Assembly: GCA_035275065.1 (NCBI GenBank) | Contig: DATENM010000023.1 | Span: 71,215 to 135,214, forward strand | Length of the DNA: 64,000 bases | Direction of reading: 5' to 3' | Source of the DNA: Blastocatellia bacterium | Lineage (GTDB): Bacteria; Acidobacteriota; Blastocatellia; UBA7656 | The notes under the pieces: generated by a model | The model's database searches: none | The model's input: the letters and a program-made list of their open reading frames with translations, nothing else | What the model was told of the DNA's origin: nothing | Shown: positions 2,980 to 19,823 of the stretch, in pieces | Numbering within the stretch: position 1 is the stretch's first letter | Layout: every line of letters starts with the position of its first letter | Translations under genes and position numbers: made by a program

Positions 2980-3369
2980 ATGGGGCAGCCGGCAGCAAAA
3001 CAAGGGGACCGTATTACGGCGACCGACATCCATCTCATACAGCCGCCCGGGCCGAGTTCGCCCGTCCCGACGCCTCACCCGTTCAGCGGGGTCATAGACG
3101 GGAATCTCAGCGGCAACGTCAATATTGAAGGTCGCGCGGCGGCGACCGTGAACAGCACGGCGACCAACACGCCCCCACACATCCCGCAGGGCGGGACGTT
3201 CGTTGTCCCGCCGAAAAACCGCGCGACGATCATCACCGGAAGCCTGACGGTTTCGATCAATGGAAAGCCGGCGGCGCGCTCCGGCGACACCGCGCTGACC
3301 TGCAATGACCCTGTTGATATGCCTGTAGGAACAGTTGTGGCGCAAGGAACGGTGAATATAGGTGGCTGA
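2980..3369 (+). CDS. PAAR-domain spike tip protein
   Basis: 129 aa, Gly-rich, with a literal PAAR motif (INGKPAARSGD) and a further ...GDTALTC motif. Confidence 0.75.
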   Translation: MGQPAAKQGDRITATDIHLIQPPGPSSPVPTPHPFSGVIDGNLSGNVNIEGRAAATVNSTATNTPPHIPQGGTFVVPPKNRATIITGSLTVSINGKPAARSGDTALTCNDPVDMPVGTVVAQGTVNIGG

Positions 3370-3769
3370 CATACGCGGAGATTTCATAGGTCAGGGCTGG
3401 CGGTTTCCGGTCAAGCCTGATTTGCAGGGCCGGTTGAACCTGGTTTCAGGCGACGAGGAGATACGCCAGAGCATATGGCTAATCCTGACGACCGCACCCG
3501 GCGAGCGGCAGATGAGGCCGGAGTTCGGATGCGGCATTTGCGATCTGGTCTTTGATGCAAACACGGCTATGCTGCACGGCCTGGTGCAGGAGAAGGTGAA
3601 GTCGGCCCTTACCAAATGGGAGCCGCGCATAGACGTTATCGATGTGCGGGTTGAAGCGCCGCCCGAACAGCGCAACCTGTTGTTGATCCAGGTCGATTAT
3701 CGCATCCGCGCCAACAACGCTTTTTTCAATCTGGTCTACCCATTCTTCCTGATTGAAGGAGCAGGGTGA
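3362..3769 (+). CDS. Baseplate wedge protein, GPW/gp25 family
   Basis: 135 aa. IRQSIWLILTTAPGER...PEFGCGI is the gp25-like signature. It overlaps the PAAR gene by 8 nt. Confidence 0.8.
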   Translation: MADIRGDFIGQGWRFPVKPDLQGRLNLVSGDEEIRQSIWLILTTAPGERQMRPEFGCGICDLVFDANTAMLHGLVQEKVKSALTKWEPRIDVIDVRVEAPPEQRNLLLIQVDYRIRANNAFFNLVYPFFLIEGAG

Positions 3770-5717
3770 TCGTATGCCTCTCGAAGAGCCAAAACTGGAC
3801 GACCGGGAGTTCGAGCAGTTGGTCAGGGAACTGCGCCTGCGCATCCCGCGCTACACAAAGGACTGGACCAACTTCAACGACAGTGACCCTGGCATCACGC
3901 TGCTACACCTTTTCGCGTGGCTTTCAGAGATGATGCTCTTCCGAATGAATCAGGTCCCGCTCAAGAACTATATAAAGTTCCTGAAACTGCTCGGCCAGGA
4001 ACTCCGGCCGGCGAGACCTGCCAGAGCGCGCCTGACCTTTACGGCAACCCCCGGAGCGCAGGCCAAACCGGTCCCGGAACGGGCGCAGGTTTCCGCGCAG
4101 ATCGATGATGGCGGCGAGCCCCTGATCTTTGAAACTGAAAGAGGGCTGGATGTGATAAGCCTCCCGCTCGAAGACGTGGGCATCTTCGATGGCGCGGCCT
4201 TCATAAATGTAACCGAAGCGAATAAGGCCCCCGGCACAAAGTTCCGCCCGTTCGGGTTTGCCCCCGACGTAGGTAACGCGTTTTATCTGGGGTTCAAGCC
4301 GCCTGACGAGCCGCTCGATGCGCAGGCCGAACCGTTCCCGCAAGAGATGACCTTCGCCGTCTTTTTGCCGCCGGAGACAACTGCCGGAAGGCCGCAGAAA
4401 TGCACAGGCGAGCAGAGCCCGCCCGTGCCCCCTGTCAGTCTCGTCTGGGAATTCCGCCCCAGGGCGAACGACACGACCTGGCAGCGACTGAACGTCTTCG
4501 AAGACGAGACGGCGGCCTTCACTCGCGAAGGATACATCCGCGTGGAAGGGCCGCGGGAGATAGAACCGTCTGTGGAGGCGCGCCTGAGCCCGACGCCTCG
4601 GTTCTGGATTCGCGTGCGGATTGCCGGGCCAGCTACTTACCCGGCGGGCCGAGCTCCGCAGATTGATTTCCTGCGCCCGAATACAGTCAATGCCGTGAAC
4701 CTCAGTACTGTGCGCGGGGAGATACTCGGCGAGAGCCAGGGGCAGCCGGGCGAGCAGTTTCAACTCTTGAGAAAACCCGTTGACAAAGCATCGCTGAAAT
4801 TGAGAACCGAGCTGCCCGACAGCGAGCCCGAACAGTGGACAAAGGTAGAGGATTTTTATGCCTCAAAGGCGGGCGATTCGCATTACACCCTCAACGCCAC
4901 AGCCGCGATCATTCAGTTCGGCGACGGGACGAAGGGCCGCATCCCCGAAGCGGGGGCGCAGGTGATTGCCACGGAATACCGATACGGCGGCGGCGCGCGC
5001 GGCAACAACGCGGGCAAGGGGTCTATAAAGAATCCGCAAACGGTACTGGAAGGCATAGATAAAGTTACCAACGAAAGGCCCGCTGTCGGCGGCGCCGACG
5101 AGCAGACGCTGGAAGAGATAAAAACCGAAGCGCCTTCGCTGCTCAGGCAGCGTAATCGCGCGGTGACGCCAGAGGATTTCAAGGCTTCGGTTGAAGAGAT
5201 GGGCGGTGTGGCTAAAGCGAGGGCCTTGTCGCTGTTCCACCCGGATCATCCGGGCGTAGAGGTGCCCGGCGCTGTCACGGTCGTGATTGTCCCTGACAAT
5301 GAAGAGAAACCACCAAAGCCTTCGGGTGATCTGATTCGCGAAATCTGCGCCGCGCTCGATGAAAAGCGGCTGCTTACGACCGAGGTCTTCGTCAAAGGCC
5401 CCGAGTATCAGGAAGTGCGCGTCGAGGCGCGCGTGACGGCCGAGCCATACGCTTCATTCAATGCCGTCACGATCTCTGTTATCAAAGCACTCGATAAGCT
5501 GCTGGACCCACGCCAGGGAAAATTCGGCGAGGAGCTGTTCCCAACAAGCTTGTACGGCACTATCTTGCAAGTGCCGAGCGTGGTGGCCGTGCTGTCGCTG
5601 AATGTCTTCGTCAACGGCAGGCGGCACGAAGGTCTTAAGCCAATCCAAGTGCCTCTCGACGGTCTGGTCTTCGGCCGTAATCACATCATCACGGTTGAGC
5701 CTCGACAGGATCAATAG
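3753..5717 (+). CDS. Baseplate J-like protein (gp6 / Afp11-like)
   Basis: 654 aa. The N-terminus (EFEQLVRELRLRIPRYTKDWTNFNDSDPGITLLHLFAWLSEMM) is the typical start of the Baseplate_J family. Confidence 0.8.
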   Translation: MKEQGDRMPLEEPKLDDREFEQLVRELRLRIPRYTKDWTNFNDSDPGITLLHLFAWLSEMMLFRMNQVPLKNYIKFLKLLGQELRPARPARARLTFTATPGAQAKPVPERAQVSAQIDDGGEPLIFETERGLDVISLPLEDVGIFDGAAFINVTEANKAPGTKFRPFGFAPDVGNAFYLGFKPPDEPLDAQAEPFPQEMTFAVFLPPETTAGRPQKCTGEQSPPVPPVSLVWEFRPRANDTTWQRLNVFEDETAAFTREGYIRVEGPREIEPSVEARLSPTPRFWIRVRIAGPATYPAGRAPQIDFLRPNTVNAVNLSTVRGEILGESQGQPGEQFQLLRKPVDKASLKLRTELPDSEPEQWTKVEDFYASKAGDSHYTLNATAAIIQFGDGTKGRIPEAGAQVIATEYRYGGGARGNNAGKGSIKNPQTVLEGIDKVTNERPAVGGADEQTLEEIKTEAPSLLRQRNRAVTPEDFKASVEEMGGVAKARALSLFHPDHPGVEVPGAVTVVIVPDNEEKPPKPSGDLIREICAALDEKRLLTTEVFVKGPEYQEVRVEARVTAEPYASFNAVTISVIKALDKLLDPRQGKFGEELFPTSLYGTILQVPSVVAVLSLNVFVNGRRHEGLKPIQVPLDGLVFGRNHIITVEPRQDQ

Positions 5718-5725
5718 GACCGTTT

Positions 5726-8386
5726 ATGCGACTTGAACCTCAAGGTGCGACATTCTGGTTGATCGGCGGCCAGGGCGGCTGGGAGAAGCGAACCGCCGAG
5801 ACGAGCCAGACTGCCGTAAACGACTCTGATGGCGTTCGCCTTGGGGCGGCGCGCGGCGGGCCGCTCTCGCTTGATGCGCCAGATTGCAGCCTCGGAGGTC
5901 TTATTCTTCCTCGCGGCTTTGCGCTCGACGGCCAGAACACTTTGTACCTTTTGAGCCGTGAAGACCTCTGCATCAAACGCTACGACCCGGAGACGCGCAC
6001 ATTTCAACGGCTGCCTGAGATTGGCGGCGCGGGGTCCGAGCCGCGCCAGTTTAAGAAGCCCAGGAACATCGCCATTGCGGGCAAATGGCTTTATGTAGCG
6101 GACTCTGAAAACCGCCGCGTCCAGGTATTTGATCTCGAAAACCTCGCGCTCACTGAAATCTGGGGGCCGACGGGAGCGCGCGCCGAGTGGCAGCCTGTTG
6201 ATGTCGCCGAACACAAAAGGAGTGTTTACATACTCGACCGTCACAAAGCCCGCATCTATCGCCATACGCCCGGAAGCCTTCTTCGAGAGCATTCCTCGTG
6301 TCCCGGCCGCGAGGACCAGTGGACCAGAATTGCGGTTGACCGGGAAGGTCGCATCTACTTGCTCAAAGAGATTAAAGATCAAGAACCTGTCCTTGAGATG
6401 TCTGACTGCAAAGGGCCTGGCTTTAAAGACGCCGGCACGCTTCGCGACCGATTCGACCCTCCGGCAATAAGGCTCGATGAGGCCGGGCGGTTCTGTCTTC
6501 CGCCGTCGCTCGCAAGACTATGCGCTCGGCAAATGCCGCGAGCCGCGCCCGCCCCGGAGGCGCAGCTAGGTCTGTGCGCGCCATTCGATAGGGAGCTGCG
6601 GAGATGTGAAGAACCGGCGGCTCCGAGGACGGTTCGGACCGCGGCAGGAGCTTTCCTGGTCTACGTCCTTGAGCGCGAGCAACGTCGTGTTCGCGCTTAC
6701 ACAATTGATGGGCTAAGACTGCGCCACGCCTGGGGCCACGCACTCGACTGGAAACCGGTCGATGTGGCCGCGCGCGGCATGATGGCCTGTGTGCTAGACG
6801 AAGACGGGACGGTCTATCGACACAGGGCTGGCCGGGAAGAGATACGCGCCGTTGTGCCCACGCGCGAAAGGCCGCCGATCCCTACGCGCATCGCCATTGA
6901 CAATAAAGGAGCGATCCTTCTTCACGCGCCCGGCGAGCCGACGGTCCTTGTCTATGACTGCCGGGAGAGCAGACGCGGGGAGAGACGCTATAGCGAAGTC
7001 GCCGACCTCTTTGAAGCAGCCGAACCGAAGGAAGCGCCCTCGCTATCTACCGGCCTGATCTTTGACAAGCAGGGCGAGCCGGTCGAATCGCTCGACCCAA
7101 AGGATCAGTCAGGGCTTGCGCTGTATCAGACCTCAGGTACGTGGCAGGGCAAACCGCTCGACAGCTCGATCTACAGATGTCAGTGGCATCGCATAGAATT
7201 GAACGCCTCCGGCCTTCCTCCAGGCAGCCGCATCGAAGTGAGAACCTACGCGCACGAGGAAGAGGAAGATGTTATAGGCGTGCCTGACCAACAGTGGCAG
7301 CACGCTTACACAATCCTTGCTCCTATTGAACCGCCACAGTGCGACCAGAAGGATGTTCGTAGATTTGAGTTCCTGGTTCAGAGCGGCAGCGGGCGTTACC
7401 TGTCGATCATGATGAAGCTCGACGCGGACAGCTTCAGCACCCCTGTCGTGCAATCGATCAAGGCGCATTACCCGCGAGAGTCTTATCTGAAATACCTGCC
7501 CGCGGCCTGGTCTGCCGACGACGAGAGTCGCATGTTTTTGGAGCGATTCCTGGCCATCTTCCAGACCGAGTGGGACGACATAGAACTGCGGATCGACGAG
7601 ATCGCGCAATACTTCGATCCCGAAGCGGTGCCGGACGGACCTTTCCTCGAATACCTCGCAAGGCAGTGGCTGGCCTTACCGCTTGAAGGCGACTGGAATC
7701 AAGGCCAGAAACGTAAACTGCTCGCCGCTGTGCCGAAGATATACCCGCATCGCGGCAAGCTTCGCGGCCTGCGCGATTTCATCGCGGTTTATCTGGCGAA
7801 CATGGCGAACCTGCCTGCCGACGAGGTGCGCGGCACGGATTTCCCGGTCATCGTCGAAGGGTTCAGAGAGCGGCAACACCTTATCCTCGCGGAGGGCGCA
7901 AGCAGGCTCGGACAATCAGGACCACCGCTGTGGAGCGCGAGTGTCACAAGAAGGCTGCAACTCGGGGTCTTCTCCCGCGAAGGCGAAGCAGAGCTTGTAT
8001 CTACGGGCGACCCTTCGCGCGACATCTTTCACCACTACGCTCACCGCTTCAGAGTGCTTGTCCCCGCAAGCTGGGTGCGAACCGCCGACGACGAGCGCAA
8101 GATACGGCGCGCGATTGAGGCCGAGAAGCCCGCGCAGACCCGCTATGACCTGTGCTTGCTTGATGCGCGATTCCGAGTCGGCGTGCAATCGACCGTCGGC
8201 GTTGACACGATTATGGGCGAAACGCCACTGACGACGCTGGGCTGTGAACATGTAACGGACCGTCCGCCGAGCCTGCCCCGCAGCGGGCGTCTCGGGTTGG
8301 ACACAATTTTGACTTCGGCCAGGGGAGACATGGTGATGCGACTCGCCCCGGGCGCTACCGTCGGAAAGGGGTCGCTGCTTGCCTAA
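5726..8386 (+). CDS. Large baseplate wedge component (Afp12 / P2 gpI-like), putative
   Basis: 886 aa, placed immediately after Baseplate_J, which is the conserved Afp12 position. There is no sharper domain call from sequence alone. Confidence 0.5.
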   Translation: MRLEPQGATFWLIGGQGGWEKRTAETSQTAVNDSDGVRLGAARGGPLSLDAPDCSLGGLILPRGFALDGQNTLYLLSREDLCIKRYDPETRTFQRLPEIGGAGSEPRQFKKPRNIAIAGKWLYVADSENRRVQVFDLENLALTEIWGPTGARAEWQPVDVAEHKRSVYILDRHKARIYRHTPGSLLREHSSCPGREDQWTRIAVDREGRIYLLKEIKDQEPVLEMSDCKGPGFKDAGTLRDRFDPPAIRLDEAGRFCLPPSLARLCARQMPRAAPAPEAQLGLCAPFDRELRRCEEPAAPRTVRTAAGAFLVYVLEREQRRVRAYTIDGLRLRHAWGHALDWKPVDVAARGMMACVLDEDGTVYRHRAGREEIRAVVPTRERPPIPTRIAIDNKGAILLHAPGEPTVLVYDCRESRRGERRYSEVADLFEAAEPKEAPSLSTGLIFDKQGEPVESLDPKDQSGLALYQTSGTWQGKPLDSSIYRCQWHRIELNASGLPPGSRIEVRTYAHEEEEDVIGVPDQQWQHAYTILAPIEPPQCDQKDVRRFEFLVQSGSGRYLSIMMKLDADSFSTPVVQSIKAHYPRESYLKYLPAAWSADDESRMFLERFLAIFQTEWDDIELRIDEIAQYFDPEAVPDGPFLEYLARQWLALPLEGDWNQGQKRKLLAAVPKIYPHRGKLRGLRDFIAVYLANMANLPADEVRGTDFPVIVEGFRERQHLILAEGASRLGQSGPPLWSASVTRRLQLGVFSREGEAELVSTGDPSRDIFHHYAHRFRVLVPASWVRTADDERKIRRAIEAEKPAQTRYDLCLLDARFRVGVQSTVGVDTIMGETPLTTLGCEHVTDRPPSLPRSGRLGLDTILTSARGDMVMRLAPGATVGKGSLLA

Positions 8387-9800
8387 AAAGGAGAGTGCGA
8401 ATATGAGCGAAGAGGATTACAAAGAATGCGCCGACCTGGCCCTTGAGCGGATGCGATATTTCACAGGGCGTTTTATGACTGCACGCGATTTTCGAGACGA
8501 GCAGGCTTATCATTGGACGCACAGGCTCCTGCACAACCGGATTCTACATGGCTGGGGTGTGGTCTGCGGGTTACATGTAACCGAGCATCCCTCAAAGGAC
8601 TGTCGTGATGATCACGTAAAGGTCAGTTCCGGCATGGCCATAGATTGTTGCGGAAGAGAGGTAGTCGTCAGCAAGAACCTCGTGCCTCCGCCGATACCGT
8701 GGAAGGAAAGGCCCGCCGAAACGGGTCAGTCATCAAACGAGAGCAAAGATCATGAAAAAGACCATGAGGGTGACCGGCGATACTACCCGCTGCTTTGCTT
8801 GGTGTATGAAGAGAAGCTTATAGAACAGGTCCCGGTCCTTTACAGTGAAGGCAACTGCGACGAGCAGAGGCGCGAATACAGCCGCATACTGGAAGGGTAC
8901 GAATTCAAGTGGAGCTGGGTGCGCCGCCGCGACCTGCCTAAGTACCACTGGAAGGTGCGCAGCAGAGGTTGCGACGATGAGTATGAACAGGATCGCACAG
9001 ATTACGATAGCACGGCCGATCAACAGGCGACGCAATCAGAGCAAGCTCTCGAAGAAGGGGGCAAGGAACAGACCCCTGAGCAGCGCGCGGATTACGAGGC
9101 CCGCGCAAGCTCACGCCCGCGCCCGTGTCCTGAGGACGATTGCGATTCTGACGGCGAGCACTACAAGAGTTGCCTCGCGCCCGCTTGTCCGCCGCACCAC
9201 TGTATCCCGATTGCCTGGATACGCTCCCGCCCCGGCTCGCCAATTGATAATGACGAAATCGTTATGATGGGCAGGCCGACGCTGCGCCCTCCGGTTCAAT
9301 CGCTCACGCACATCTGCGAAATCAACTGGCCGCATGGGGGAGTCATGTCGCGCGGTCACCTCGAACGGCTCAAGCGATTGAAGGTGCGATTCGACCGCAG
9401 GCTGAAGAAGCCGGAAAAAGGTGCGGGCAGGCGCGGCCCCTACGGCGTCAACGCTTCGACCTTCGTCGTGCAGTATGGCGCAAGGCAAGAGGACCTGGAT
9501 TTCGTCCCCTACACGACTTCCCCGCACGTCGAGCACGACTGCATAGGGGTTTATTCGCTTAGCCCTGAGGGGGCTGCCGAGGGCGAGCGGGCTTTTTCGC
9601 ATCTCGAAAACCAGGTCGTTTTCGTGACCCTGAAATGCGATTTCATTTTAGACTGCCACGGCGTGCCGGTTGACGGCAACCACCTCGGAGGGCTTTTGCC
9701 GACGGGAGATGGAATTCGCGGCGGCACGTTCGAGAGCTGGTTCCGAGTGCTGCCTGATCACGAGTACGAGAATTACAAGCGCGAGCACAGTCGCGACTAG
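8379..9800 (+). CDS. Paralog 1 of four: putative tail fibre or receptor-binding protein with the shared N-terminal domain
   Basis: 473 aa. The N-terminal ~100 aa (RYFTGRFMTARDFRDEQAYHW...HNRILHGWGVVCGLHV...VKVSSGMAIDCCGREVVV) is shared with the next three ORFs. The C-terminus is acidic and Cys-rich and is unique to this copy. Confidence 0.55.
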   Translation: MPKKESANMSEEDYKECADLALERMRYFTGRFMTARDFRDEQAYHWTHRLLHNRILHGWGVVCGLHVTEHPSKDCRDDHVKVSSGMAIDCCGREVVVSKNLVPPPIPWKERPAETGQSSNESKDHEKDHEGDRRYYPLLCLVYEEKLIEQVPVLYSEGNCDEQRREYSRILEGYEFKWSWVRRRDLPKYHWKVRSRGCDDEYEQDRTDYDSTADQQATQSEQALEEGGKEQTPEQRADYEARASSRPRPCPEDDCDSDGEHYKSCLAPACPPHHCIPIAWIRSRPGSPIDNDEIVMMGRPTLRPPVQSLTHICEINWPHGGVMSRGHLERLKRLKVRFDRRLKKPEKGAGRRGPYGVNASTFVVQYGARQEDLDFVPYTTSPHVEHDCIGVYSLSPEGAAEGERAFSHLENQVVFVTLKCDFILDCHGVPVDGNHLGGLLPTGDGIRGGTFESWFRVLPDHEYENYKREHSRD

Positions 9801-9819
9801 ACTGGAAGGAGTTACGGAT

Positions 9820-11712
9820 ATGAGCACCATGACGATGGCGCCGCAAACGGGCGGCCACCGCTGCAACTGCGGATGTTCCGACTGTATGGGTGAGTGCTGC
9901 GAGTTGGAGTATCTGGTGCAGCCGCGGTTCTTTTGTGGTCAGCTGTTGACGGACCAGGATCTCAACGCCCTGCTTGAATGGGTGAAAGGCAAAACGGCGC
10001 TCGCGCGCTACCGTGACGGCTGGGGAGTGGCCTGCGGACTTGATGTGCATTGCAGCGCGGGGCCGGGCAAGGAAGGGTTCGTGTCGGTGACTCCGGGATA
10101 TGCGATAGACTGCTGTGGCAACGACATCATCGTTCGCGAAGAGGCCGAGATAGACCTGTCGAAATACTGCCTTGTCGATGAAGGCCCTTGCAGGGACCGG
10201 GCTCCGATGTCCGCGCAAAGATCGGCAGCGCAATCGGGAACAACGCCCGGCACTCCGGGGCCGAATCTTAGTTTCGGCGGATGGGAGATTCAACAAAGCG
10301 AGGTCCAGGCGGTTGACCTTTTCATCGGTTACGCTGAGACCGCAAGCGACGCGCGAAACGCCCTTGCCAAAAGAGCCTGCGACGCCGTCGAAGTATGCGA
10401 ATACACGCGGACGCACGAGGGATATCATCTCTACGCGAAGAAGGCCGAACACTGCGACCATTCCGCTGAACGACGCGCGCTCGATTGGGAAGAAGAGTAC
10501 GGAAGAAAGCTCAAAGAACTCTTCAATGATCTTCAAGCCATCTCCACCATTGGCAATGCAAAGCAGAGGGTTGAGAGGTTGAGCCAGTGGCTCACGAGCC
10601 ACGCGCTCCACAGCTTCAGCTTCATCCGAGAATGGCTGTGCGAACTTCAAAGACTGAACGAACCGACGGCCGGCTGGTTCGAGAAGATGATCTTCTGGTT
10701 GGTGCAGGACTGGCGCAGCCATTACCTCGGGTGTGAATGTTACGGCTGCGGCCCCGACACGGGCGTGCATCTGGCGAGGGTATGGCTTTGGCGGCGAAAG
10801 GACGAGCGCGGCAGGGCTTACTGCAAGGTAATATATATCAATCCCTATCCGCCGTTCCGCCGCCCGCTTCAGAGGGAATGCTGGCCCGGCAGGCCCGGTT
10901 ATTTAAACGTCGCGCGCTTCATCTGGCAGCCTACCGACTACGTCGTAGGAGAGTTGAGCAGTCTTGGCTTTGGCAGTATTTCGACGGCGCCGTTTACATA
11001 TGGAAACCTCGAAGGGTTGCGCACGAAGTTTGCCGATGATCATCTGTTCGTGCCGCGCGGGGATGGCACGAGAGCCCAAAGATTGATCATCTATTCATAC
11101 CAGGACATCTGCCAGCAGAGCCGCGTGGTGCGTTTCGGGGTCGAAACGGCGCCCATCAGAACAGATGTAAACGTGAACGCTGCATTGACCAAAGAAGATG
11201 TGAAGCCGGTGAATCAAACAACCACAGGCACAGCCGCAAGCTCAGGCTCTACACCAACCACAGCCAACGCGGAGGATGCAAAGCCGGCTACCGGGCCGGG
11301 CTTAGAGCCGCCCGCTTCACCGACTACGCCCCTTGCTGATCCGACAGCGGGACCGCCGGTAAACTCAAACGGTCCGGCCTTAATTGCAAATAACAGCCCG
11401 GCCGCTGAGATAGTCATAGCGCCGGATGTCCCAATCACGCCAGCCGTTGCAAATCCGGTTGGCAGGACGGCAATTGACCCGGACACCCTTCCGCCAACCC
11501 ACCCCCTGCTTGAGATTCAGCAAGTGAAGGGTATCGGGCCCGTTTACGCGATGCGCCTCGAAGAGGCTGGCATTATGAACCTGCGAGACCTGTCCAAGAG
11601 CAATCCGGCCACAGTGAAGCAGGCGCTGGCCGGCGGCCCGCCGAATCGCCCGGCCGAAGATATTGTCCAGGAAGCCGCAGAGCGGATCAGAAAGTTGAAG
11701 GAAGGAACTTAA
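9820..11712 (+). CDS. Paralog 2 of four: shared N-terminal domain, Cys-rich N-terminus, Pro/Thr-rich linker and a C-terminal HhH-like motif
   Basis: 630 aa, starting MSTMTMAPQ after a GGAAGGAG RBS. It has a CNCGCSDCMGECC cluster and the shared domain (PRFFCGQLLTDQDL...YRDGWGVACGLDV...VTPGYAIDCCGNDIIV). A P/T/A-rich stretch follows. Near the C-terminus is LLEIQQVKGIGPVYAMRLEEAGIMNLRDL. Confidence 0.55.
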   Translation: MSTMTMAPQTGGHRCNCGCSDCMGECCELEYLVQPRFFCGQLLTDQDLNALLEWVKGKTALARYRDGWGVACGLDVHCSAGPGKEGFVSVTPGYAIDCCGNDIIVREEAEIDLSKYCLVDEGPCRDRAPMSAQRSAAQSGTTPGTPGPNLSFGGWEIQQSEVQAVDLFIGYAETASDARNALAKRACDAVEVCEYTRTHEGYHLYAKKAEHCDHSAERRALDWEEEYGRKLKELFNDLQAISTIGNAKQRVERLSQWLTSHALHSFSFIREWLCELQRLNEPTAGWFEKMIFWLVQDWRSHYLGCECYGCGPDTGVHLARVWLWRRKDERGRAYCKVIYINPYPPFRRPLQRECWPGRPGYLNVARFIWQPTDYVVGELSSLGFGSISTAPFTYGNLEGLRTKFADDHLFVPRGDGTRAQRLIIYSYQDICQQSRVVRFGVETAPIRTDVNVNAALTKEDVKPVNQTTTGTAASSGSTPTTANAEDAKPATGPGLEPPASPTTPLADPTAGPPVNSNGPALIANNSPAAEIVIAPDVPITPAVANPVGRTAIDPDTLPPTHPLLEIQQVKGIGPVYAMRLEEAGIMNLRDLSKSNPATVKQALAGGPPNRPAEDIVQEAAERIRKLKEGT

Positions 11713-11724
11713 CCTCCGGTAATC

Positions 11725-14244
11725 GTGATGGAAAGCAAGCGCGTCTATTATGTTGAAAGACAGCGGCTCACCGCCGCGGATCTTCAGTCCGAGCAGGAAT
11801 ACCTGAACGGGTTGGACCTGCGCCACAACCTCAACCAACACATGCCGGGCATCATTCGCGGTCTCCAAATCCGACTCGCCTCTGGCCAGTTCCAGGTTGA
11901 GCCCGGCATCGCGATTGATTCGTTCGGCCACGAGCTTTTGCTTCAACAGGCAGAGCCCCTATCGCTTAATGAAGGCGCCGAGTGCGTTGATACCTGGCTC
12001 ATCTACTGCCGCGAGCAGTCGCGGCTGCGTAAGCCCGGCCGCGCCCCATGCTCAGAGAATACTTTCGAGCGGTGGCGCGAGGCCCCACGCGTACTCGTTA
12101 CACCTGCTCACAAAGACAATGATCCAGAGTTGCCGGCAGAGGGTGCGGTTTTCCTGGGCAGGATCAACTGCGGGGACCGACGAGACATCGCCTATACGGG
12201 GTTGCGCGGCATAGGAGTCGCTGACCCCGGCGTGCGCGCGCTGATGCAGGTCGGCCCGCGTACGGATCGCGACCCTTATGGCTTTGTGTTGAGAGTTGCC
12301 GATGAGTCAGGCAACCTCGCTAAAAGAATCGCGATGGACCGGCGCGGCAATAATTACTTGTTCGGCATGGTGCAGTTACTCGATTGCCAACGGACGCTCG
12401 TTGTGCCATTGCTTCAGAATACGCTGCGCATGATGGTCAAGGCCAGTAAGCCTGGAGAATCTGGAAAGCAGATTCAGGTAATGATAAGGGAGACACAACA
12501 AGGGAATGAGATTAATCTGACATTGATTGACGAAAGCGGTACTCCGCAGCCCGAAGTGCTAACTGTCACGGCCGGCAGACCGCCCAAAGACATAGTAGAG
12601 GAGTTAAACAAGAAATCGGCACTGGCGACGTTCATCCTTGTCAACAAAGATACTGAACCCGGTGATGAGAATGTCCAGTTGCTGAGTGTGCAAGACGATG
12701 TCCACGCCATTCTGACCAGCGCCAGGGCAATGTTAGAGCTCGCCGACTGGTCGAAAGAGGCTCCGGCAGAAATCATACGGCGCGGGTGCTATGATCCATT
12801 GCCCAACGAGAGCTTAACTGATGGGGACGAGCCGAATGGTCTATCTTTTCGTCCTGTATCGAAGCCACCCAAAGGCACACCGCGGCCGAGAATCTACAGC
12901 GTAACAGTGCAATCCGGCGACCGCACTATAGAACGGCTGCGCCTTGATCTTGGCGAAAAGAAGGAAAACGATACCACCGTGCGGCTGTCGATAGGCGCGC
13001 CACCTCAGGACGATACGCCCTCCGGCATGTGGCTGTCGGTCAGCGGCAATTGCCTGGTTTCTCTCAACCCCAAGAAGGACCCAAAGGACGAGGACGAAGA
13101 AACCCTTCCCGCTAGAATCGAGGTAACTGGCTCGATTGAGCAGTCGCCTATAAAGCCCGACCCCACGAATCCACTCTTTCGAGATCTGCTCGTCGCCGCA
13201 TGGTTAGCCGGATTGCGTAGCTCGATTCAGGCTTCGACGACTATTAACGTTACCTTCGAGCAAGTCCCCCAGTTGATCGAAACCAAAAAGCCATGGGGCT
13301 ACACCGTGCGCCTGACCAACAACGAGAAAAAAGAGATCACCGCTGACAAGCTGCTTGAGACCATACCCGTTTCTAAGAAAGCGCCGATACGAAGCCTGGG
13401 GACGCAAGTCTCAATCCCTCCCAGCAGCAGCACCACCATCTCTGTGAGTCACGAGAAGGATGAAATCCCGGCGGGATTTATGGACATCGAAATCATGGCC
13501 AGCGGAAAGATCGGAAACTTCCCCTGGTGGAAATCCAACGAGAAGAAACATATCCCCGTCCTGGAAACGCCGGTGATCGATACCTCGGATGTCCCCGATT
13601 CGGTGCCGCCTTCGGCAACCTGGAGCCATGAATTCACTATCAGGAACACTGCTACGCTGCCCCTGACATTGAAGGAAGTGATCGTTACCGAAGATGCGAC
13701 CGTCCGCAATCTGTTGCCTATGCCGACCGAGATATTACCTGGGGGTGAGAGAGTTGTCGGGCCGGTCCCGCATCCAATCGAGGTAACGTCAGACCTGAGA
13801 ATCGCCTTATCCATGAAATACCAGTGGCAGAACGGCCCGGAAGATACGCTCTCGCTGGATGAGCCGAAAATAGTAAAAGTAGAACAACAACTCCAGTTTG
13901 TTGAGTTCGAGACCCCGGGCGAAATCGAAGTAGAAAGGGACTGGGCGTATGGGTTAAAGCTGAAGAACAAGAGTGCGATGCCGTTGACCGAAATCTCGCT
14001 CAAGCACAGGCTCATAAGCGAAAACCTTCCCGTAATGCCGTTTGTAGCCATACCCGATGTGCCGACAACTCTGGACCCGAACGAGTCCACGCTTTCGTTA
14101 CATATTGCCGGCGTCAAAGCTCCGGTTTCGACCCAGGACACGACAGTCCGGGTGGAGATCGAGGCGCAATACGAACGGGGCGGAAGGGCCTGGCTTTTGA
14201 AGCCGGTTTTCTCAGATGAGATCGAAGTCACCGATGGAAGTTAA
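11725..14244 (+). CDS. Paralog 3 of four: shared N-terminal domain with a long beta-rich C-terminal region
   Basis: 839 aa. Shared domain: RQRLTAADLQSEQEYLNGL..HN.......RGLQI....FQVEPGIAIDSFGHELLL. The remainder is unique. Confidence 0.55.
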   Translation: MMESKRVYYVERQRLTAADLQSEQEYLNGLDLRHNLNQHMPGIIRGLQIRLASGQFQVEPGIAIDSFGHELLLQQAEPLSLNEGAECVDTWLIYCREQSRLRKPGRAPCSENTFERWREAPRVLVTPAHKDNDPELPAEGAVFLGRINCGDRRDIAYTGLRGIGVADPGVRALMQVGPRTDRDPYGFVLRVADESGNLAKRIAMDRRGNNYLFGMVQLLDCQRTLVVPLLQNTLRMMVKASKPGESGKQIQVMIRETQQGNEINLTLIDESGTPQPEVLTVTAGRPPKDIVEELNKKSALATFILVNKDTEPGDENVQLLSVQDDVHAILTSARAMLELADWSKEAPAEIIRRGCYDPLPNESLTDGDEPNGLSFRPVSKPPKGTPRPRIYSVTVQSGDRTIERLRLDLGEKKENDTTVRLSIGAPPQDDTPSGMWLSVSGNCLVSLNPKKDPKDEDEETLPARIEVTGSIEQSPIKPDPTNPLFRDLLVAAWLAGLRSSIQASTTINVTFEQVPQLIETKKPWGYTVRLTNNEKKEITADKLLETIPVSKKAPIRSLGTQVSIPPSSSTTISVSHEKDEIPAGFMDIEIMASGKIGNFPWWKSNEKKHIPVLETPVIDTSDVPDSVPPSATWSHEFTIRNTATLPLTLKEVIVTEDATVRNLLPMPTEILPGGERVVGPVPHPIEVTSDLRIALSMKYQWQNGPEDTLSLDEPKIVKVEQQLQFVEFETPGEIEVERDWAYGLKLKNKSAMPLTEISLKHRLISENLPVMPFVAIPDVPTTLDPNESTLSLHIAGVKAPVSTQDTTVRVEIEAQYERGGRAWLLKPVFSDEIEVTDGS

Positions 14245-14271
14245 CCCGAGTCGGAAGGAGGTCCGAAATTT

Positions 14272-15525
14272 ATGACGACCGTGATTGTCCCGCGAGTGCA
14301 TTTTTTTGACAAACAGTTTTTGCGGGTGGACGAATTCAGAGATGAGCAGTTATACCAGCTTGCTGCCAGGCGTCGTCATAACGTAGCCCATCATTCCTGG
14401 GGCATCGTTCTGGGCCTGGAGATCGCGCAGGAAGATGGGGCGGTGATCGTTCGCCCCGGCATGGCTATTGATGGCTACGGGCGCGAGCTGGTGCTGCCCG
14501 ACAAGGAGTACCTTGCGGAGGGAGCTTTTGATGATCTAGGCGCAGACCGGCTCGATGTCTGGCTCGTCTATTCCCGCCGCGATGGGGAGGCTGCGCCCGA
14601 AGGATATGGTGGCTGCGGACCTGCGGGTGCGCGCGACGCTTATCGATCAGATGAGGTTCCACGGGTCATTGTCGAGAGGCCCGTTTCAAATACTGTTGAT
14701 GCGCGGCGTCCGCCGGGCGTGCAGGAGAGTGTGCTGAGCTCGAAAGTGCCCCTGATCTCTGACGATGATAATGACAGGTGGAGGGTCTATCTCGGCCGTA
14801 TCATTCGCCTTCCCGACGGCACGATTATGATCGATTCCGCGCAGCGGTCTTATGTCGGACTGGTAGGCGAGGTGATAGATCATCCGGCCAATGGTGCGCG
14901 CCTGGAGATCGGCAAACAATCGAGCAACAACGACAAGCGCAATATAGGTGAGGTTACATACGAATATGAGAAAGGCGAAGACGCTCAGCGGAAACAGTCG
15001 CGGCGCTTCGCTATATTCGTCCCTGAAGCTGACGTGTCGGGGTCGGCTGAACAGCAAGTGAAAATATCGCCTCGCTTCGACATTCTCCAAAGCGGAGTAA
15101 TGCGTATCCGCGGCAGAACTATAATCAACGGCAACCTACAGATCACCGATGGGGCCGTTCAGTTTAACGAGCCGGCCAGCTTTAGCCCGGAGAACGCCCC
15201 GCAGAAGCCTTCAATTTACCGGATAACATCCACAGCCGGCGGGGGCGACCAGTTACGAATAGACCTCGGCTCAGAAAACACTATCGACCGTGAGTTCGTC
15301 ATCGGGTTTTCTAATGAGGAAGGTGAGTTTGTCACTTGCCTCAAGCTAGAGCTGAAGGACAATGATCCAAATAAACTGACGCCACTCGTCACGATTAACG
15401 GAGACCTCATGTTGAATGGCGAGGTGGTAGGAGGCAATTTAGTTCCGCGCGCCTTGAGTCAGGAAGCCTTCAACGCCATCCTGGCAAGCTTCCAGGCGGG
15501 GGTCGCCGCCAGCAATAACGTATAG
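14272..15525 (+). CDS. Paralog 4 of four: shared N-terminal domain
   Basis: 417 aa. Shared domain: KQFLRVDEFRDEQLYQL...HNVAHHSWGIVLGLEI...VIVRPGMAIDGYGRELVL. The C-terminus is unique. Confidence 0.55.
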   Translation: MTTVIVPRVHFFDKQFLRVDEFRDEQLYQLAARRRHNVAHHSWGIVLGLEIAQEDGAVIVRPGMAIDGYGRELVLPDKEYLAEGAFDDLGADRLDVWLVYSRRDGEAAPEGYGGCGPAGARDAYRSDEVPRVIVERPVSNTVDARRPPGVQESVLSSKVPLISDDDNDRWRVYLGRIIRLPDGTIMIDSAQRSYVGLVGEVIDHPANGARLEIGKQSSNNDKRNIGEVTYEYEKGEDAQRKQSRRFAIFVPEADVSGSAEQQVKISPRFDILQSGVMRIRGRTIINGNLQITDGAVQFNEPASFSPENAPQKPSIYRITSTAGGGDQLRIDLGSENTIDREFVIGFSNEEGEFVTCLKLELKDNDPNKLTPLVTINGDLMLNGEVVGGNLVPRALSQEAFNAILASFQAGVAASNNV

Positions 15526-15545: not shown

Positions 15546-17564
15546 ATGGAACCGCGCATTGGACATTGGCACTGCCGCTACAGGCTAATAGGCGCGCGCC
15601 AGGAGGCTGCGCTTGCGGTCGAACGCCTTGAGCGAACGGTGCGGCCGCGCGTGTCCGCGGCTTATGCCGACGCCCTCGCCCACGCCTTCGAAAACGATCC
15701 GGCGGTCTATTGTCTGCGCCGCCTCAACGTGCGGCTTGTGCTCGACGGCGCAATGGCCGAAACCGAGGCGAACCTCGCACGTAGATGGGCCGACCGCTTA
15801 GGGTCTGCCGTGGTAACGAGCATTGCGCGTGACGGCGACCATAGCGACAACCTCGTTCGGTTCATGGATGAGCCTGATTATGTGGCGCACTTCCTCCTCG
15901 ACCTGTTGAATGATATGGCATGGCAGCGCTGGTATTACGGCGCGTTTTCAAAGCTCCGTGGTCGTCCGAAAAAAGAGGCAGTGCTGTTCTTATTGATGGA
16001 GCACCGAGAGCATCTTTCGGCAATCCTCCGGCGATTGGCGATCCTCGGCTGCCTCAGCCGAGTCCTCGCGCTGATTGACGAACCTGCCGCGCGCGCTCTT
16101 TGGTCCGAAGCTGGGGAGACTCGCGCCGAGCTCCACAACGCAGATGGGCATCGCATTTTCGTTCGCAGCGCGATTCACATACTCCGCCTGCTCGGCGTTT
16201 GGCCCACCTCAGCGCCTTCTGAGTCAGCCGTTCTTGAAGAGTACCTGAAGAACCGTCCATTGATGCCGGACTGGACGGACCGTCGCTCGCTTGCGGCAGC
16301 AGTGCTTAACGTAATACGCCACGCAACTGACCGCGCATACGTGTCGGGCTTGAACTCCGAAACCGCCGAGAAGCTCCCGGAAATCGGCGAACAAATCTCG
16401 TCGGAATTCGACTGGCTCGATGTTGAATGGCTGTGCAACGCGCTGTTTGCGATTCTGGCTAAAACCTTGCCCGAACTACGGCAGTCCACTTTGCCATCTC
16501 GCAATCCGGCAGCCACCCCCCTGCACCGCCAGATTGTCGAGCGCATCCGCGACCTGTTGCGGGCGGGCAAAGTCAGGCTCAATCTAAATGAGGCGGACAC
16601 GGCACTGAACGCTATCAGGCTCTATGCAGCGCTGGCGGCTGCCGACCCTGAGCTTGCAAGCCGGGCCGCCGCGCGAGCCGTTATCGATCACCTGTTGATA
16701 TGCGCCAGGTCGTTTGCGGAAGCTTCCGGCCCCCACACAATCCTGGCTGCGATGCGAATGGGCGGCGGCGCGCCCTCGTTCGCAATACTCCCTCGCCGCG
16801 CACAAGACGCACTTAACACGGCTGCAAGTTATGGCCCCGCCGCTGTAGAAGCTCTGGAAGAGATCATCGCGTCAAGAGTGGCTGGAGGCACAGAGGCTTT
16901 CACAAAGCGGTTTCAAACCGAGTGTGCGGGACTTTTTTTGGCGGCGCGAGCGATCATTGATGCGCGCATTACGCAGGTGGCCACGGCTTGCGGGGCGGGG
17001 CCGGTCTCATCTGTTTTGCTTGCCATCGGTATCGTATGGATGGGACCGCGCGCGCTTCGCGATACGATTACTGACGAGGGCCTCGCCTTCTGGTGCGGCC
17101 TTGCTCCTGAGGAGCATTGCGCCACAGAGATGCTCGCAGCCCTTGACGTTGAGGGTTGCCACCGACTTCTTGTGAAGGTGCGTGAGCTGTTTGAAGACCG
17201 CGCCGCGCTCTACTCGTCTCTTAAAGAGATTGCTGCGCCAGAATCCTGTCTGGCCGATTTGATCGCAGACCTGCCTCCCGGCGTGATCGTCAACGAATCG
17301 CTCGCGCTCACAGCGATCTACGCGATCAGACTTTGGGCGCAGTGGCTGCCCGGCCTGTCCGGTTCGAGCCCGCTTTACCTGCTGCGTAATATGTTGCGGC
17401 GAGCGGGCGCGCTGCAAATCAGCGATCATTGCGTAGATGTCCGTCTTCAGCCCGGCCCGTTCGACGTTGTGCTTGAGATGGCCTCCTACACGAAGGAACT
17501 CTCCGGGGTCACGTGGCTCGGAGGCCGGAAGGTTATCTTCCACATCGAGCGGAGCTCCGAATGA
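15546..17564 (+). CDS. Ala/Leu-rich helical protein in the Afp14 position; candidate tail-length (tape-measure-like) protein
   Basis: 672 aa with a predominantly helical composition, directly upstream of the AAA+ ATPase and overlapping its start. The assignment is by position and composition only. Confidence 0.35.
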   Translation: MEPRIGHWHCRYRLIGARQEAALAVERLERTVRPRVSAAYADALAHAFENDPAVYCLRRLNVRLVLDGAMAETEANLARRWADRLGSAVVTSIARDGDHSDNLVRFMDEPDYVAHFLLDLLNDMAWQRWYYGAFSKLRGRPKKEAVLFLLMEHREHLSAILRRLAILGCLSRVLALIDEPAARALWSEAGETRAELHNADGHRIFVRSAIHILRLLGVWPTSAPSESAVLEEYLKNRPLMPDWTDRRSLAAAVLNVIRHATDRAYVSGLNSETAEKLPEIGEQISSEFDWLDVEWLCNALFAILAKTLPELRQSTLPSRNPAATPLHRQIVERIRDLLRAGKVRLNLNEADTALNAIRLYAALAAADPELASRAAARAVIDHLLICARSFAEASGPHTILAAMRMGGGAPSFAILPRRAQDALNTAASYGPAAVEALEEIIASRVAGGTEAFTKRFQTECAGLFLAARAIIDARITQVATACGAGPVSSVLLAIGIVWMGPRALRDTITDEGLAFWCGLAPEEHCATEMLAALDVEGCHRLLVKVRELFEDRAALYSSLKEIAAPESCLADLIADLPPGVIVNESLALTAIYAIRLWAQWLPGLSGSSPLYLLRNMLRRAGALQISDHCVDVRLQPGPFDVVLEMASYTKELSGVTWLGGRKVIFHIERSSE

Positions 17565-19822
17565 AGTCCCACATGCCTCCAGAAGTCCTGCTGAATCGCG
17601 GCCCATACAGGCGCAGCGCGGAACACTTGCGCGACGAACTTGCACGCGTAGACCTGCTTGTGCGCGCGCAGGTAGTGCGCTGGCGTTTGACCATCGGACA
17701 GACAAAGGCGGAAGAGATGTGGGGCATGGTTTATGTGACCGACGCCGAGATTGACCGGTATATGAGTTCTCCTATCGCGCCGCCCGACCGACTGCCCGAA
17801 TCGTTGCTGCACGCCCTCAAGCCGTTCTGGGAGGCTGAAGCTTTAGCAGGCCGACAAATCCGCGAGAACGTGCAGGCCACGGCTTCTGAAGTCGATCTGA
17901 GGGTGAATTCACTCTCCACAGCATTTCAGCTAACCGACCTTGAGCGAGACCTCGTGCTGGTTTGTTTGCTGGCCGAACTCGACTTCCGCTACCGCCGCAT
18001 GCTCGGTTATCTCCAAGATGATGTTTCCCACAAAAAGCCGCCAGTTGAGCTGCTGCTCCAGATAATGCGCCCGCGGGCCGAATCGCTTGAAGAGGCCCGT
18101 GCGGCATTTGAGCCCGAAGGCACGCTTCTGTCAAAACGGCTTCTTGTCTTGAGCGGCGAAGATGACAATCGCGCAACGCGGTCTGTTCGGCTGGATGAAA
18201 GAATCGCGTCATACCTTCTCGGCTCGGACGGCCTGGACGCTCGCCTATCGAATGTCGTGGTGAGAAGCGCGGAGGCGGTGAAATGGGATGAGCTACTGTT
18301 TGATGATGCGCTCATCGCCCACCTGCGCCACCTGGCGGATTACGTGAGTCTCGGCAAAGCCATCCTGTTTTTTCACGGCCTTCGCGGCAGCGGTCGAGAA
18401 AAGGCTGCGCACGCCATCTGCACTCAAAACGGTATGCAGCTTCTGCGCGTGGACGTGGCGGCGGCCCTTCAGGAACAGACGCGATGGGAGGTTATCGTCG
18501 ATCTCGCGTTTCGAGAAGCGCGGCTCGCCGGGGCCGCCATTTACTGGGCAGATGTCGATCTTCTGCCGCAGGATGAGCAGGCGTCATATCGCGTGGATTA
18601 CCTGCGGCGCGCCGCCGGCAACTTTCAGGGGCTAACGATTCTGTCCGCAACTGTGGCGGGAGAAAGTTACGCGCAGTTTCGCACCTGCCTGCCTCTGCAT
18701 GTCGATTTCCCTGTCCCTCACTTCGAACGCCGCCGCAAGATATGGTTGGCCTATCTGCCGCCCGAAGATGAGCTGCCGAACAGAAATGAAATCGCGGAAA
18801 CGCTTGCCGGGGCGTTTCAGCTCAACGAAGGGCAGGTACGCGATTCGGTCGTCTCTGCGCGAGAGCTTGCGCGGCGGCGCGATGTCTTCAATCCGAAGGT
18901 TACGAGCGAAGACCTCTACGACGCCTGCCGTAAACAGGCCGGTCGTCGCTTGCTCGGATTCGCGCGGCGGATCGAGCCCTCGCGCAAGCTCTCGCTCGAC
19001 GACGTGATCCTGGCCGAGACTAATAAACGGCAGCTTAAGGAGCTATTGAACCGCATACGTCTGCGCAGCCGCCTCTATTCCGAGATGAAATTCGGGCGAA
19101 GCCTCGCCGAGCGCAAGGGCCTGCTGGTTTTGTTCGCCGGCTCGTCCGGCACCGGCAAGACCATGTCGGCCGAGCTGCTTGCCAGCGAAGAGGGGGTTGA
19201 CCTGTATAAGGTTGACCTTTCCGCCATCGTGAGCAAGTGGGTGGGAGAGACTGAAAAGAACCTCAACCGAGTATTTGCGGAAGCTGAGGACTCAAACGCG
19301 CTGCTGTTCTTTGACGAATGCGACGCCCTGTTCGGGCAGCGCGGCGAGATCAGAGAGGCGAAAGACCGGTGGGCCAACCTCGAAGTGAATTACCTTTTAC
19401 AGCGCGTGGAGGAGTATTCAGGGGTAGTCATTATGGCTACGAATCTGAGGCAGAATATCGATGATGCTTTCCTGCGTCGCATTCAAGTCATCATAGAGTT
19501 CCCTTCTCCGGACTCGGAATTACGCTTAAAGATATGGGAGCGGAGTCTCCCGCCGCCGCCACATTCAGACATCAGTGAAGACGATTTGCGAAACGTGGCT
19601 AACCGGTTTGCAATCACTGGTGGCAACATACGCAACATCGTGATCGATGCAGCCTTCCGCGCGCTGGCAGACCACCGTGCGGGGATTACTCTCCGCGACC
19701 TTGTGGATTCAATCGCGCGGGAATACCAGAAGATCGGCAAGCCTATCACTCAGGGAGATTTCGGCAAAGAGTTCTTCGGATGGGTTGTCGCTGATATCCT
19801 CTCTCCTCCCGCTGAAGGGTGA
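17561..19822 (+). CDS. AAA+ ATPase (Afp15 / CDC48-like eCIS assembly ATPase)
   Basis: Walker A is GSSGTGKT and Walker B is LLFFDECD, with a long N-terminal domain. The start MKSHMPPE overlaps the upstream stop. The ORF track offers an alternative start at 17513. Confidence 0.8.
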   Translation: MKSHMPPEVLLNRGPYRRSAEHLRDELARVDLLVRAQVVRWRLTIGQTKAEEMWGMVYVTDAEIDRYMSSPIAPPDRLPESLLHALKPFWEAEALAGRQIRENVQATASEVDLRVNSLSTAFQLTDLERDLVLVCLLAELDFRYRRMLGYLQDDVSHKKPPVELLLQIMRPRAESLEEARAAFEPEGTLLSKRLLVLSGEDDNRATRSVRLDERIASYLLGSDGLDARLSNVVVRSAEAVKWDELLFDDALIAHLRHLADYVSLGKAILFFHGLRGSGREKAAHAICTQNGMQLLRVDVAAALQEQTRWEVIVDLAFREARLAGAAIYWADVDLLPQDEQASYRVDYLRRAAGNFQGLTILSATVAGESYAQFRTCLPLHVDFPVPHFERRRKIWLAYLPPEDELPNRNEIAETLAGAFQLNEGQVRDSVVSARELARRRDVFNPKVTSEDLYDACRKQAGRRLLGFARRIEPSRKLSLDDVILAETNKRQLKELLNRIRLRSRLYSEMKFGRSLAERKGLLVLFAGSSGTGKTMSAELLASEEGVDLYKVDLSAIVSKWVGETEKNLNRVFAEAEDSNALLFFDECDALFGQRGEIREAKDRWANLEVNYLLQRVEEYSGVVIMATNLRQNIDDAFLRRIQVIIEFPSPDSELRLKIWERSLPPPPHSDISEDDLRNVANRFAITGGNIRNIVIDAAFRALADHRAGITLRDLVDSIAREYQKIGKPITQGDFGKEFFGWVVADILSPPAEG

Positions 19823-19823
19823 T

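Follow-up and report, generated by a model that had tools for sequence, protein, structure and literature searches.

The window analysed here, 64,000 nt of the genome of a member of the Blastocatellia (Acidobacteriota) represented by an uncultured metagenome-assembled genome (MAG), carries on its + strand the operon of a contractile injection system (CIS), the 5' end of which is cut by the start of the window. The locus is that of a CIS resembling the extracellular contractile injection systems (eCIS), having a CIS_tube gene that includes LysM as well as a gene for an AAA ATPase that contains a winged-helix domain (WHD). Immediately following its Baseplate_J and Tail_P2_I genes, at the place occupied by Afp13/Cis13, is an array of four paralogous genes, here denoted P1 to P4. 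The products of these genes are probably four different fibre or ‘leg’ proteins of the CIS, each attached to the baseplate, and, judging from comparison with related loci, they are a fixed, ancient set of three families, A, B and C, rather than interchangeable cassettes. The genes and their parts are listed in Table 1.

All four proteins share an N-terminal domain that begins within the first 5-30 residues, as proposed in the first-pass annotation of this DNA, and pairwise BLASTP and independent family profiles agree on this relationship. In the BLASTP comparisons, P3 and P4 align at E 2e-17 over 127 aa, followed by P1 and P4 (E 2.5e-13), P1 and P2 (E 1.9e-10), P1 and P3 (E 8e-6), P2 and P4 (E 0.002), and P2 and P3 (E 0.003), with identities of 25-41% between paralogs. 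Hidden Markov models (HMMs) built mostly from homologues outside the window yield the same result: the P4-family HMM matches P3 (E 4e-30), P1 (3e-21) and P2 (5e-6), and the P1-family HMM matches P2 (E 3e-19), P4 (3e-17) and P3 (6e-11). The motif first read from the four proteins agrees with a 14-sequence consensus, RxRYFxGQLLTAxDFxxEQxYxxxxxRRHNRxLHGWGVVxGLxV...PGxAIDCxGREIVL. The original estimate of ~100 aa for the shared domain falls short of both the extent of homology and the structural domain, which spans ~150-200 aa. P1 and P2 are alignable over ~200 aa, and the match of the P1-family HMM to P2 covers aa 21-229, so that homology to P1 runs to ~aa 229; P3 and P4 share ~130 aa and, further downstream, a collinear block (P3 386-430 / P4 306-344, E 0.001). 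The statement that everything after the domain differs among the paralogs is accordingly accurate beyond ~residue 200 but not before it, and P3 and P4 are closer paralogs.

The shared domain, initially left without a named family, matches eBAP3, one of the five N-terminal eCIS baseplate anchor domains described by Nachmias, Wang, Feng, Jiang & Levy (Nat Commun 2026; PMC12923769), as well as the N-terminus of haloarchaeal Cis13, represented by NCBIfam NF053767 (CIS13_fam); of the three family collections searched, Pfam and PHROGs contain no match and only NCBIfam does. NF053767 aligns with the first 80-110 residues (or profile positions) of all four paralogs, the scores being 80.8 bits for P1, 39.8 for P2, 15.1 for P3 and 26.2 for P4, with only profile positions 4-109 covered. 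All four thus remain below the 370-bit cut-off for full-length membership, whereas HBOR_RS17690, the true Cis13 of the Halogeometricum borinquense T6SS-like CIS and the positive control, scores 579 bits over positions 1-392. P1 and the H. borinquense Cis13 are 28% identical over 157 aa (E 5e-14). Among PDB sequences, the domain profile detects Cis19 (7b5h) at E 7e-6 and the PKD-domain protein 9wt0_a at E 8e-5; no sequence match to the Anabaena Cis13 (All3316) was detected. The P1-family profile and full-length P2 and P3 yielded nothing meaningful against PDB sequences, with the sole exception of a weak similarity of the P2 C-terminus to the helix-hairpin-helix (HhH) region of DinB-type polymerases. 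A tblastn search of 50,697 phage genomes with the domain found nothing; a Pfam search detected no DUF6519 (eBAP5) at E <= 0.01 in P1-P4 or ten orthologues, and neither Pfam nor NCBIfam gave a TssK family match for P1-P4.

Structure prediction, proposed at the outset as a check on the paralogs, gives the ‘shoulder’ fold of TssK, phage receptor-binding proteins (RBPs), Cis19 and Alg19 for both of the proteins modelled, P1 and P4. These are AlphaFold2 monomer models based on alignments of 87 and 93 sequences, with a mean pLDDT (predicted local distance difference test) of 84 for P4 and 79 for P1. They show a shoulder made of a helix and a beta-sandwich, and the structures that rank highest against it are the shoulders of TssK and RBPs rather than fibre shafts; Foldseek with the P4 model finds TssK at E 4e-5 and Cis19 at E 5e-4, over ~200-216 columns.

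The assignment to eBAP3 follows from a related locus of Mesorhizobium prunaredense (FTPD01000045, locus L016), three genes of which are matched by the N-domain HMM at E 2e-27, 1e-24 and 5e-21, with 53% identity to P1 by tblastn. These are genes FTPD01000045_660/661/662 in the published eBAP3 list (Supplementary Data 5, PMC12923769), which identifies the domain of the window as eBAP3. The collagen match reported there at aa 594-650 falls in the same place as the one found here at 599-651, and the gene upstream, FTPD01000045_659, encodes NHL and Tail_P2_I, as does Cis12, the Tail_P2_I gene of the window. Features of eBAP3 that are found here are the N-terminal anchor, the shoulder-like fold of ~200 aa, the location downstream of Tail_P2_I and the homology to listed eBAP3 genes. 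The modelled fold supports the view that the shared domain acts as a baseplate-attachment module, and the early idea of baseplate attachment is supported by this fold, by homology to eBAP3 and Cis13, and by gene position. Three small proteins (P0033, P0055 and P0117; ~170-180 aa), which are encoded on long contigs and share a conserved GxGPxTPGCG motif, include little beyond the shoulder domain; possibly they represent the pared-down ‘attachment-only’ forms to which the literature refers. An initial search with a 93-aa profile returned only proteins of <=181 aa, many of them on short contigs, and was uninformative on architectures.

The relatives of the array were collected with a single conserved peptide pattern, derived from a 6-sequence alignment. 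Applied to genomes representing 185,579 species of bacteria and archaea, it identifies 397 relatives, of which the best 80 are the related loci considered here. They belong to Acidobacteriota, Chloroflexota, Actinomycetota, Pseudomonadota, Verrucomicrobiota, Gemmatimonadota and one Methanoperedens archaeon, the closest being those in acidobacterial MAGs. Tandem arrays of 2-4 copies are the rule among these loci: 50 have three copies, 15 have four, 12 have two and 3 have one, several of the low counts coming from cut or short contigs. Variation in copy number across homologous loci, raised early on as a point to look at, is thus present, with 1-4 copies over the 80 loci, and gene order is maintained all the way from the tube gene to the ATPase. 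The archaeal locus (L070, from a Candidatus Methanoperedens MAG) has two tandem copies of the domain (9965-12854) after a Cis12 homologue. Since the first copy ends in the same C-terminal domain as P1, the module as a whole seems to have been transferred between the domains of life.

Comparison of the C-terminal regions defines three positional families. Family A includes P1, the counterpart of the gene that comes first in other arrays, with which it shares the terminal beta-sandwich; the C-terminal region of P1 matches position-1 genes in 42 of the 80 loci. In three-copy loci, family A proteins carry an insertion of ~400 aa, with collagen repeats inside it in both orthologues scanned (L016 and L018). 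Family B includes P2, which is orthologous to the second genes and carries the terminal HhH domain, and family C includes P3 and P4, which both correspond to the third gene, duplicated in the four-copy lineage. The N-terminal domains sort in the same manner, the nearest neighbour from another locus belonging to the same positional family for 238 of 239 domains, with a median identity of 77% between orthologues compared to 36% between paralogs within a locus. Between orthologues from four-copy loci, the N-domains are 38-88% identical and the remainder of the proteins 24-72%. P1 and P4 can be aligned over nearly their full length even between phyla, with C-termini 33-48% identical; outside Acidobacteriota, only 135-373 of 756 residues of P3 align. 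The main idea of the first-pass annotation holds for the most part, but the notion of freely alternative receptor-binding domains is not supported: the C-termini are conserved among positional orthologues across phyla, and it is only the distal part of P3 that is exchanged from one lineage to another.

The distal modules of the families are distinct. Family-B orthologues carry the same terminal HHH_5 domain as P2 (43.1 bits in L012; also in L055, L027 and L002), located after a long Pro/Thr/Ala linker and conserved across phyla. The presence of this DNA-binding-type motif at a fibre tip is unexplained; HHH_5 is listed as a terminal domain 24 times in the Pfam table of PMC12923769, in the entries considered at the C-terminus of DUF6519 fibres, and goes undiscussed in that paper. 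P3 gives a weak choice_anch_D match, and its orthologue in L004 carries DUF7507 and a HYDIN/VesB-like immunoglobulin-like (Ig) domain; the distal extension of P3 is probably Ig-like, and self-BLAST detected no internal sequence repeats in P3. Collagen triple-helix repeats are limited to family-A orthologues, which argues that family A trimerises with itself.

Cis12, the product of the gene immediately upstream of the array, consists of an NHL repeat region, a Tail_P2_I domain (Pfam, aa 605-688, 25.9 bits, above the cut-off) and a C-terminal loop-like region; the NHL match is weak. In all but one of the 80 related loci (79 of 80), the gene immediately preceding the paralogs encodes a Cis12 homologue, and this type of Tail_P2_I gene has been compared with TssG (PMC12923769). 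The mini-repeats at the C-terminus of Cis12 (Table 1) are candidate ‘triangular loops’ that would insert into shoulder trimers, by analogy with the triangular loop of Alg12 on the Alg19 shoulder trimer (bioRxiv 10.1101/2025.10.08.681156) and with TssG and TssK (PDB 6N38). The mini-repeat motifs are kept in orthologues from two-, three- and four-copy loci, and no correlation between the number of loop segments and the paralog copy number (2, 3 or 4) is visible by eye.

Under the reading that we favour, each of the four proteins would contain an N-terminal eBAP3 shoulder of ~150-200 aa, of the TssK / phage-RBP / Alg19-Cis19 type, that forms a homotrimer, the central helices of which would clasp a loop of the TssG-like Tail_P2_I protein Cis12, and the remainder of each protein would project from the baseplate. 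Family A (P1) would provide a short appendage with an Ig-like or macroglobulin-like (MG-like) head and family B (P2) a linker capped by the terminal helix-hairpin-helix domain, and family C would have duplicated into P3, a long protein rich in Ig domains whose tip varies, and P4, a short one that is conserved. We infer trimerisation and docking on the Cis12 loops, the incorporation of all four proteins and receptor binding; for target recognition, P3 is the best candidate, and likewise for the role of an exchangeable fibre.

Several observations weigh against this scheme. The models are those of monomers only, so that trimerisation and the contact with Cis12 are drawn by analogy; the modelled fold is that of P1 and P4, and for the N-domains of P2 and P3 it rests on homology; and the presence of P1-P4 in the particle is presumed. 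The cross-phylum conservation of the P1 and P4 C-termini is unusual for receptor-binding tips and suits a structural role too, and a helix-hairpin-helix is an odd receptor-binding module. Finally, the loop segments of Cis12 do not increase with copy number, which leaves the docking of four different trimers unexplained.

A structural role is the essence of the first alternative, in which P1-P4, rather than being fibres that recognise a target, are TssK-like anchoring parts that link the baseplate to a membrane of the producer, or to some other cellular structure, in a system that acts from inside the cell; TssK has this role in the T6SS. TssK is indeed the best structural match, the N-domain is homologous to the H. 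borinquense Cis13, which has been proposed to be involved in membrane attachment (PMC11566945), and it is through Cis13 that the CIS of Anabaena is held in thylakoid membranes (PMC8894136); the conservation of P1 and P4 over their full length across phyla and the fixed A/B/C set would suit such a role as well. We nevertheless consider it unlikely. None of the four proteins has a transmembrane helix (maximum Kyte-Doolittle 19-residue mean 1.42), no T6SS (type VI secretion system) membrane-complex genes were seen in the locus, and the distal modules are of the adhesin type (Ig/MG-like and DUF7507, with collagen or CarboxypepD_reg in orthologues). Moreover, P3 changes in its distal part from lineage to lineage, as target-binding tips do, and Alg19, the closest shoulder-domain fibre tested experimentally, binds target cells. 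Distinctly unlikely, too, is the suggestion that, in this large clade of CIS with an NHL + Tail_P2_I Cis12, the paralogs are not interchangeable receptor-binding fibres but an obligate, stoichiometric periphery of several TssK-like trimers (families A, B and C), each with its own co-evolved anchor and docking site, in which the conserved terminal HhH domain of family B tethers the particle to extracellular matrix DNA or the nucleoid; such tethering, if real, would be new among CIS, none of which has been described as anchored or targeted in this way.

In our preferred reading, the trimers are homotrimers. Alternatively, families A, B and C could co-assemble through their shoulders, one mixed trimer with three distal arms occupying each docking site. 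The constancy of A/B/C triads across phyla, with 50 three-copy loci, is compatible with this arrangement, as are the failure of the Cis12 loop segments to scale with copy number and the description of the Cis19 crown trimers as pseudo-C3 (PMC8894136). Heterotrimers are, however, highly unlikely, given that the solved relatives (TssK, phage RBPs, Alg19 and Cis19) are all homotrimers, that loci with two and four copies exist, that collagen repeats, which need three like chains, occur only in family A, and that the paralogs differ greatly in length, with N-domains only ~36% identical within a locus. The other option offered in the first-pass annotation, that P1-P4 are cargo or effectors and are loaded or packaged by means of the N-terminal domain that they share, is barely credible, and no result of the analysis speaks for it: eCIS effectors are often encoded near structural genes, but known eCIS cargo signals are short and disordered, whereas the shoulder is a folded domain of ~150-200 aa, as in baseplate proteins, P1-P4 contain no toxin or enzyme domain detectable in Pfam, NCBIfam or PHROGs, and the set lies in a conserved order between the wedge gene and the ATPase in 79 of the 80 loci, effectors usually being located at the variable end of the cluster.

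At the level of the genes, the four consecutive + strand open reading frames (ORFs) are present where first annotated. Of the lengths originally given (473, 630, 839 and 417 aa), those of P2 and P4 stand: genes called independently on a metagenome contig of identical sequence are 465 aa (P1), 630 aa (P2), 838 aa (P3) and 417 aa (P4) long. By this gene call, P1 most likely starts at ATG 8403, which is preceded by a ribosome-binding site, AAAGGAGAG, and not at TTG 8379. P2 starts at ATG 9820 rather than as a 680-aa TTG ORF, and P3 at ATG 11728, with GTG 11725 also possible; a plausible ribosome-binding site precedes each of the four genes. A hypothetical protein in NCBI from a Blastocatellia MAG matches P4 at 100% identity. 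P4 has 184 homologues with E <= 1e-5, and of the 120 that were listed the majority measure 390-430 aa; P1 has 520 full-length homologues. The four proteins contain 17 (P1, in the 473-aa translation from TTG 8379), 23 (P2), 7 (P3) and 2 (P4) cysteines. Those of P2 include CNCGCSDCMGECC at the N-terminus, and many of the P1 and P2 cysteines are invariant in the family alignment, a pattern suggesting that families A and B have clusters of their own for metal binding or disulfide formation.

Table 1. Coordinates of the paralog array, its parts and the neighbouring CIS genes (positions in the window unless a related locus is named)
Feature	Coordinates	Strand	Remarks
P1, family A, 465 aa	8403-9800	+	Predicted shoulder, acidic low-complexity linker, C-terminal beta-sandwich
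P1 predicted shoulder (eBAP3-type) domain, ~aa 14-175	8442-8927	+	
P1 C-terminal Ig-like / CopC-like / macroglobulin-like beta-sandwich	9300-9752 (approximate)	+	
P2, family B, 630 aa	9820-11712	+	Cys-rich N-terminus (CNCGCSDCMGECC), predicted shoulder, middle region, Pro/Thr/Ala linker, C-terminal helix-hairpin-helix domain
P2 conserved core of the predicted shoulder, aa 27-115	9898-10164	+	N-domain HMM E 7e-28; CIS13_fam E 3e-10
P2 C-terminal helix-hairpin-helix motif (HHH_5), aa 565-601	11512-11622	+	Pfam 26.9 bits, cut-off 27
P3, family C long paralog, 838 aa	11728-14244	+	Predicted shoulder, P4-similar region, ~400-aa beta-rich distal extension
P3 predicted shoulder region common to P3 and P4, aa 4-131	11728-12117	+	BLASTP E 2e-17; P4-family HMM E 4e-30
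P4, family C short paralog, 417 aa	14272-15525	+	Predicted shoulder, beta-rich body, C-terminal helix
P4 predicted shoulder domain, ~aa 8-190	14293-14841	+	
Cis12, 886 aa	5726-8386	+	NHL + Tail_P2_I
Cis12 C-terminal ~80 aa	8147-8383 (approximate)	+	Mini-repeats hG.(Q/D)(S/T): RFRVGVQSTVGVDTIMGE, GRLGLDTILTS, MRLAPGATVGKGSLLA
CIS tube/LysM	571-1269	+	
VgrG-related protein	1270-2394	+	
Spike	2373-2969	+	
PAAR	2980-3369	+	
gp25	3362-3769	+	
Baseplate_J	3753-5717	+	
672-aa protein	15546-17564	+	No family match
AAA+ ATPase	17513-19822	+	With winged-helix domain (WHD)
Family-B HHH_5 orthologue, locus L012	11212-13011		
Family-B HHH_5 orthologue, locus L055	12699-14693		
Family-B HHH_5 orthologue, locus L027	12607-14238		

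The gene that follows the array encodes the 672-aa protein previously called tape-measure-like; the gene is there, but its product has no Pfam, NCBIfam or PHROG match that would back this name. It is conserved in 52 of the 80 related loci and is located between the fibre array and the AAA+ ATPase in those loci for which the gene order was inspected. A weak PHROG tape-measure match (E 5e-5) is found in the ORF at 19647-24131 (1435-1494 aa), which has a homologue in only 1 of the 80 loci and is, therefore, a candidate for cargo or for a component peculiar to its lineage. The CIS operon is followed directly by a convergent gene on the - strand (25240-26571) for a sigma-54-dependent response regulator with the domains Response_reg, Sigma54_activat and HTH_8; control of the CIS by this regulator is possible.

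The arrangement found in the window has already been described as a class (January 2026), and this locus is a clear acidobacterial example of the four-fibre, eBAP3 type, so that the finding is confirmatory rather than surprising and the added insight is modest. What the analysis adds is that, within this clade, the multiple ‘fibres’ are a conserved A/B/C set with family-specific anchors and not a shuffling repertoire. It also sharpens the question of how one TssG-like wedge holds several TssK-like trimers and which of these recognises the target. For the re-targeting of eCIS, the comparison suggests that only the distal part of P3, the long paralog of family C, is naturally exchangeable.

The closest known counterparts are the eBAP3 fibres themselves. 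eBAP3 has been described as a shoulder-like domain of ~200 aa, resembling TssK and the crown of the thylakoid CIS (tCIS), in 1420 genes downstream of Tail_P2_I; published models place the domain on loops of Tail_P2_I, and one baseplate may bear as many as four fibres (PMC12923769). Across all five eBAP types, 23.4% of the fibre-containing eCIS loci have more than one fibre gene, and four-fibre loci are rare (19 of 2585; PMC12923769). The window shares with these systems the presence of several fibres per locus, the diverged C-terminal architectures and the analogy to TssK and TssG. The differences are that the locus is acidobacterial, with no Acidobacteria entry found in the supplementary text of PMC12923769, and that the latter stresses versatility and rapid evolution whereas here the families are conserved and have family-specific anchor domains.

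The T6SS-like CIS of H. borinquense (PMC11566945) has a Cis13 that is homologous to the paralogs over the N-terminal ~150 aa but unrelated in the C-terminal two thirds; moreover, HBOR_RS17690 is the single such gene in the annotated 18-kb stretch and is located next to the sheath gene, not in an array after Cis12. The T6SS proteins TssK and TssG (PDB 6N38, 5M30, 5Y0E) provide the best or near-best structural match to the shoulder, and a Tail_P2_I/TssG-like partner with loops that hold trimers; however, a single TssK corresponds to four diverged paralogs here, with other C-terminal domains and no TssK sequence match. The type IId CIS of Streptomyces was considered as a relative and rejected, being without fibre genes (PMC12237407).

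Alg19 of AlgoCIS and the Cis19 ‘crown’ of the Anabaena thylakoid CIS (eBAP4; PDB 7b5h) are likewise trimeric baseplate appendages. Experiments have shown that Alg12 grips the shoulder of the Alg19 homotrimer with its C-terminal triangular loop, much as TssG grips TssK, and that Alg19 mediates cell binding (bioRxiv 10.1101/2025.10.08.681156). Unlike P1-P4, each of these appendages is the product of one gene, ~1450 aa long, with a bulky shaft and PKD/Ig chains; their baseplates employ an Afp12-type partner, not Tail_P2_I, and their sequence similarity to P1-P4 is marginal. Afp13/Pvc13 (eBAP1) share with P1-P4 the operon position and the presumed role of a baseplate fibre but possess a helical-bundle anchor of ~50 aa and an adenovirus-like beta-spiral shaft, with no sequence or fold similarity found to the four proteins.

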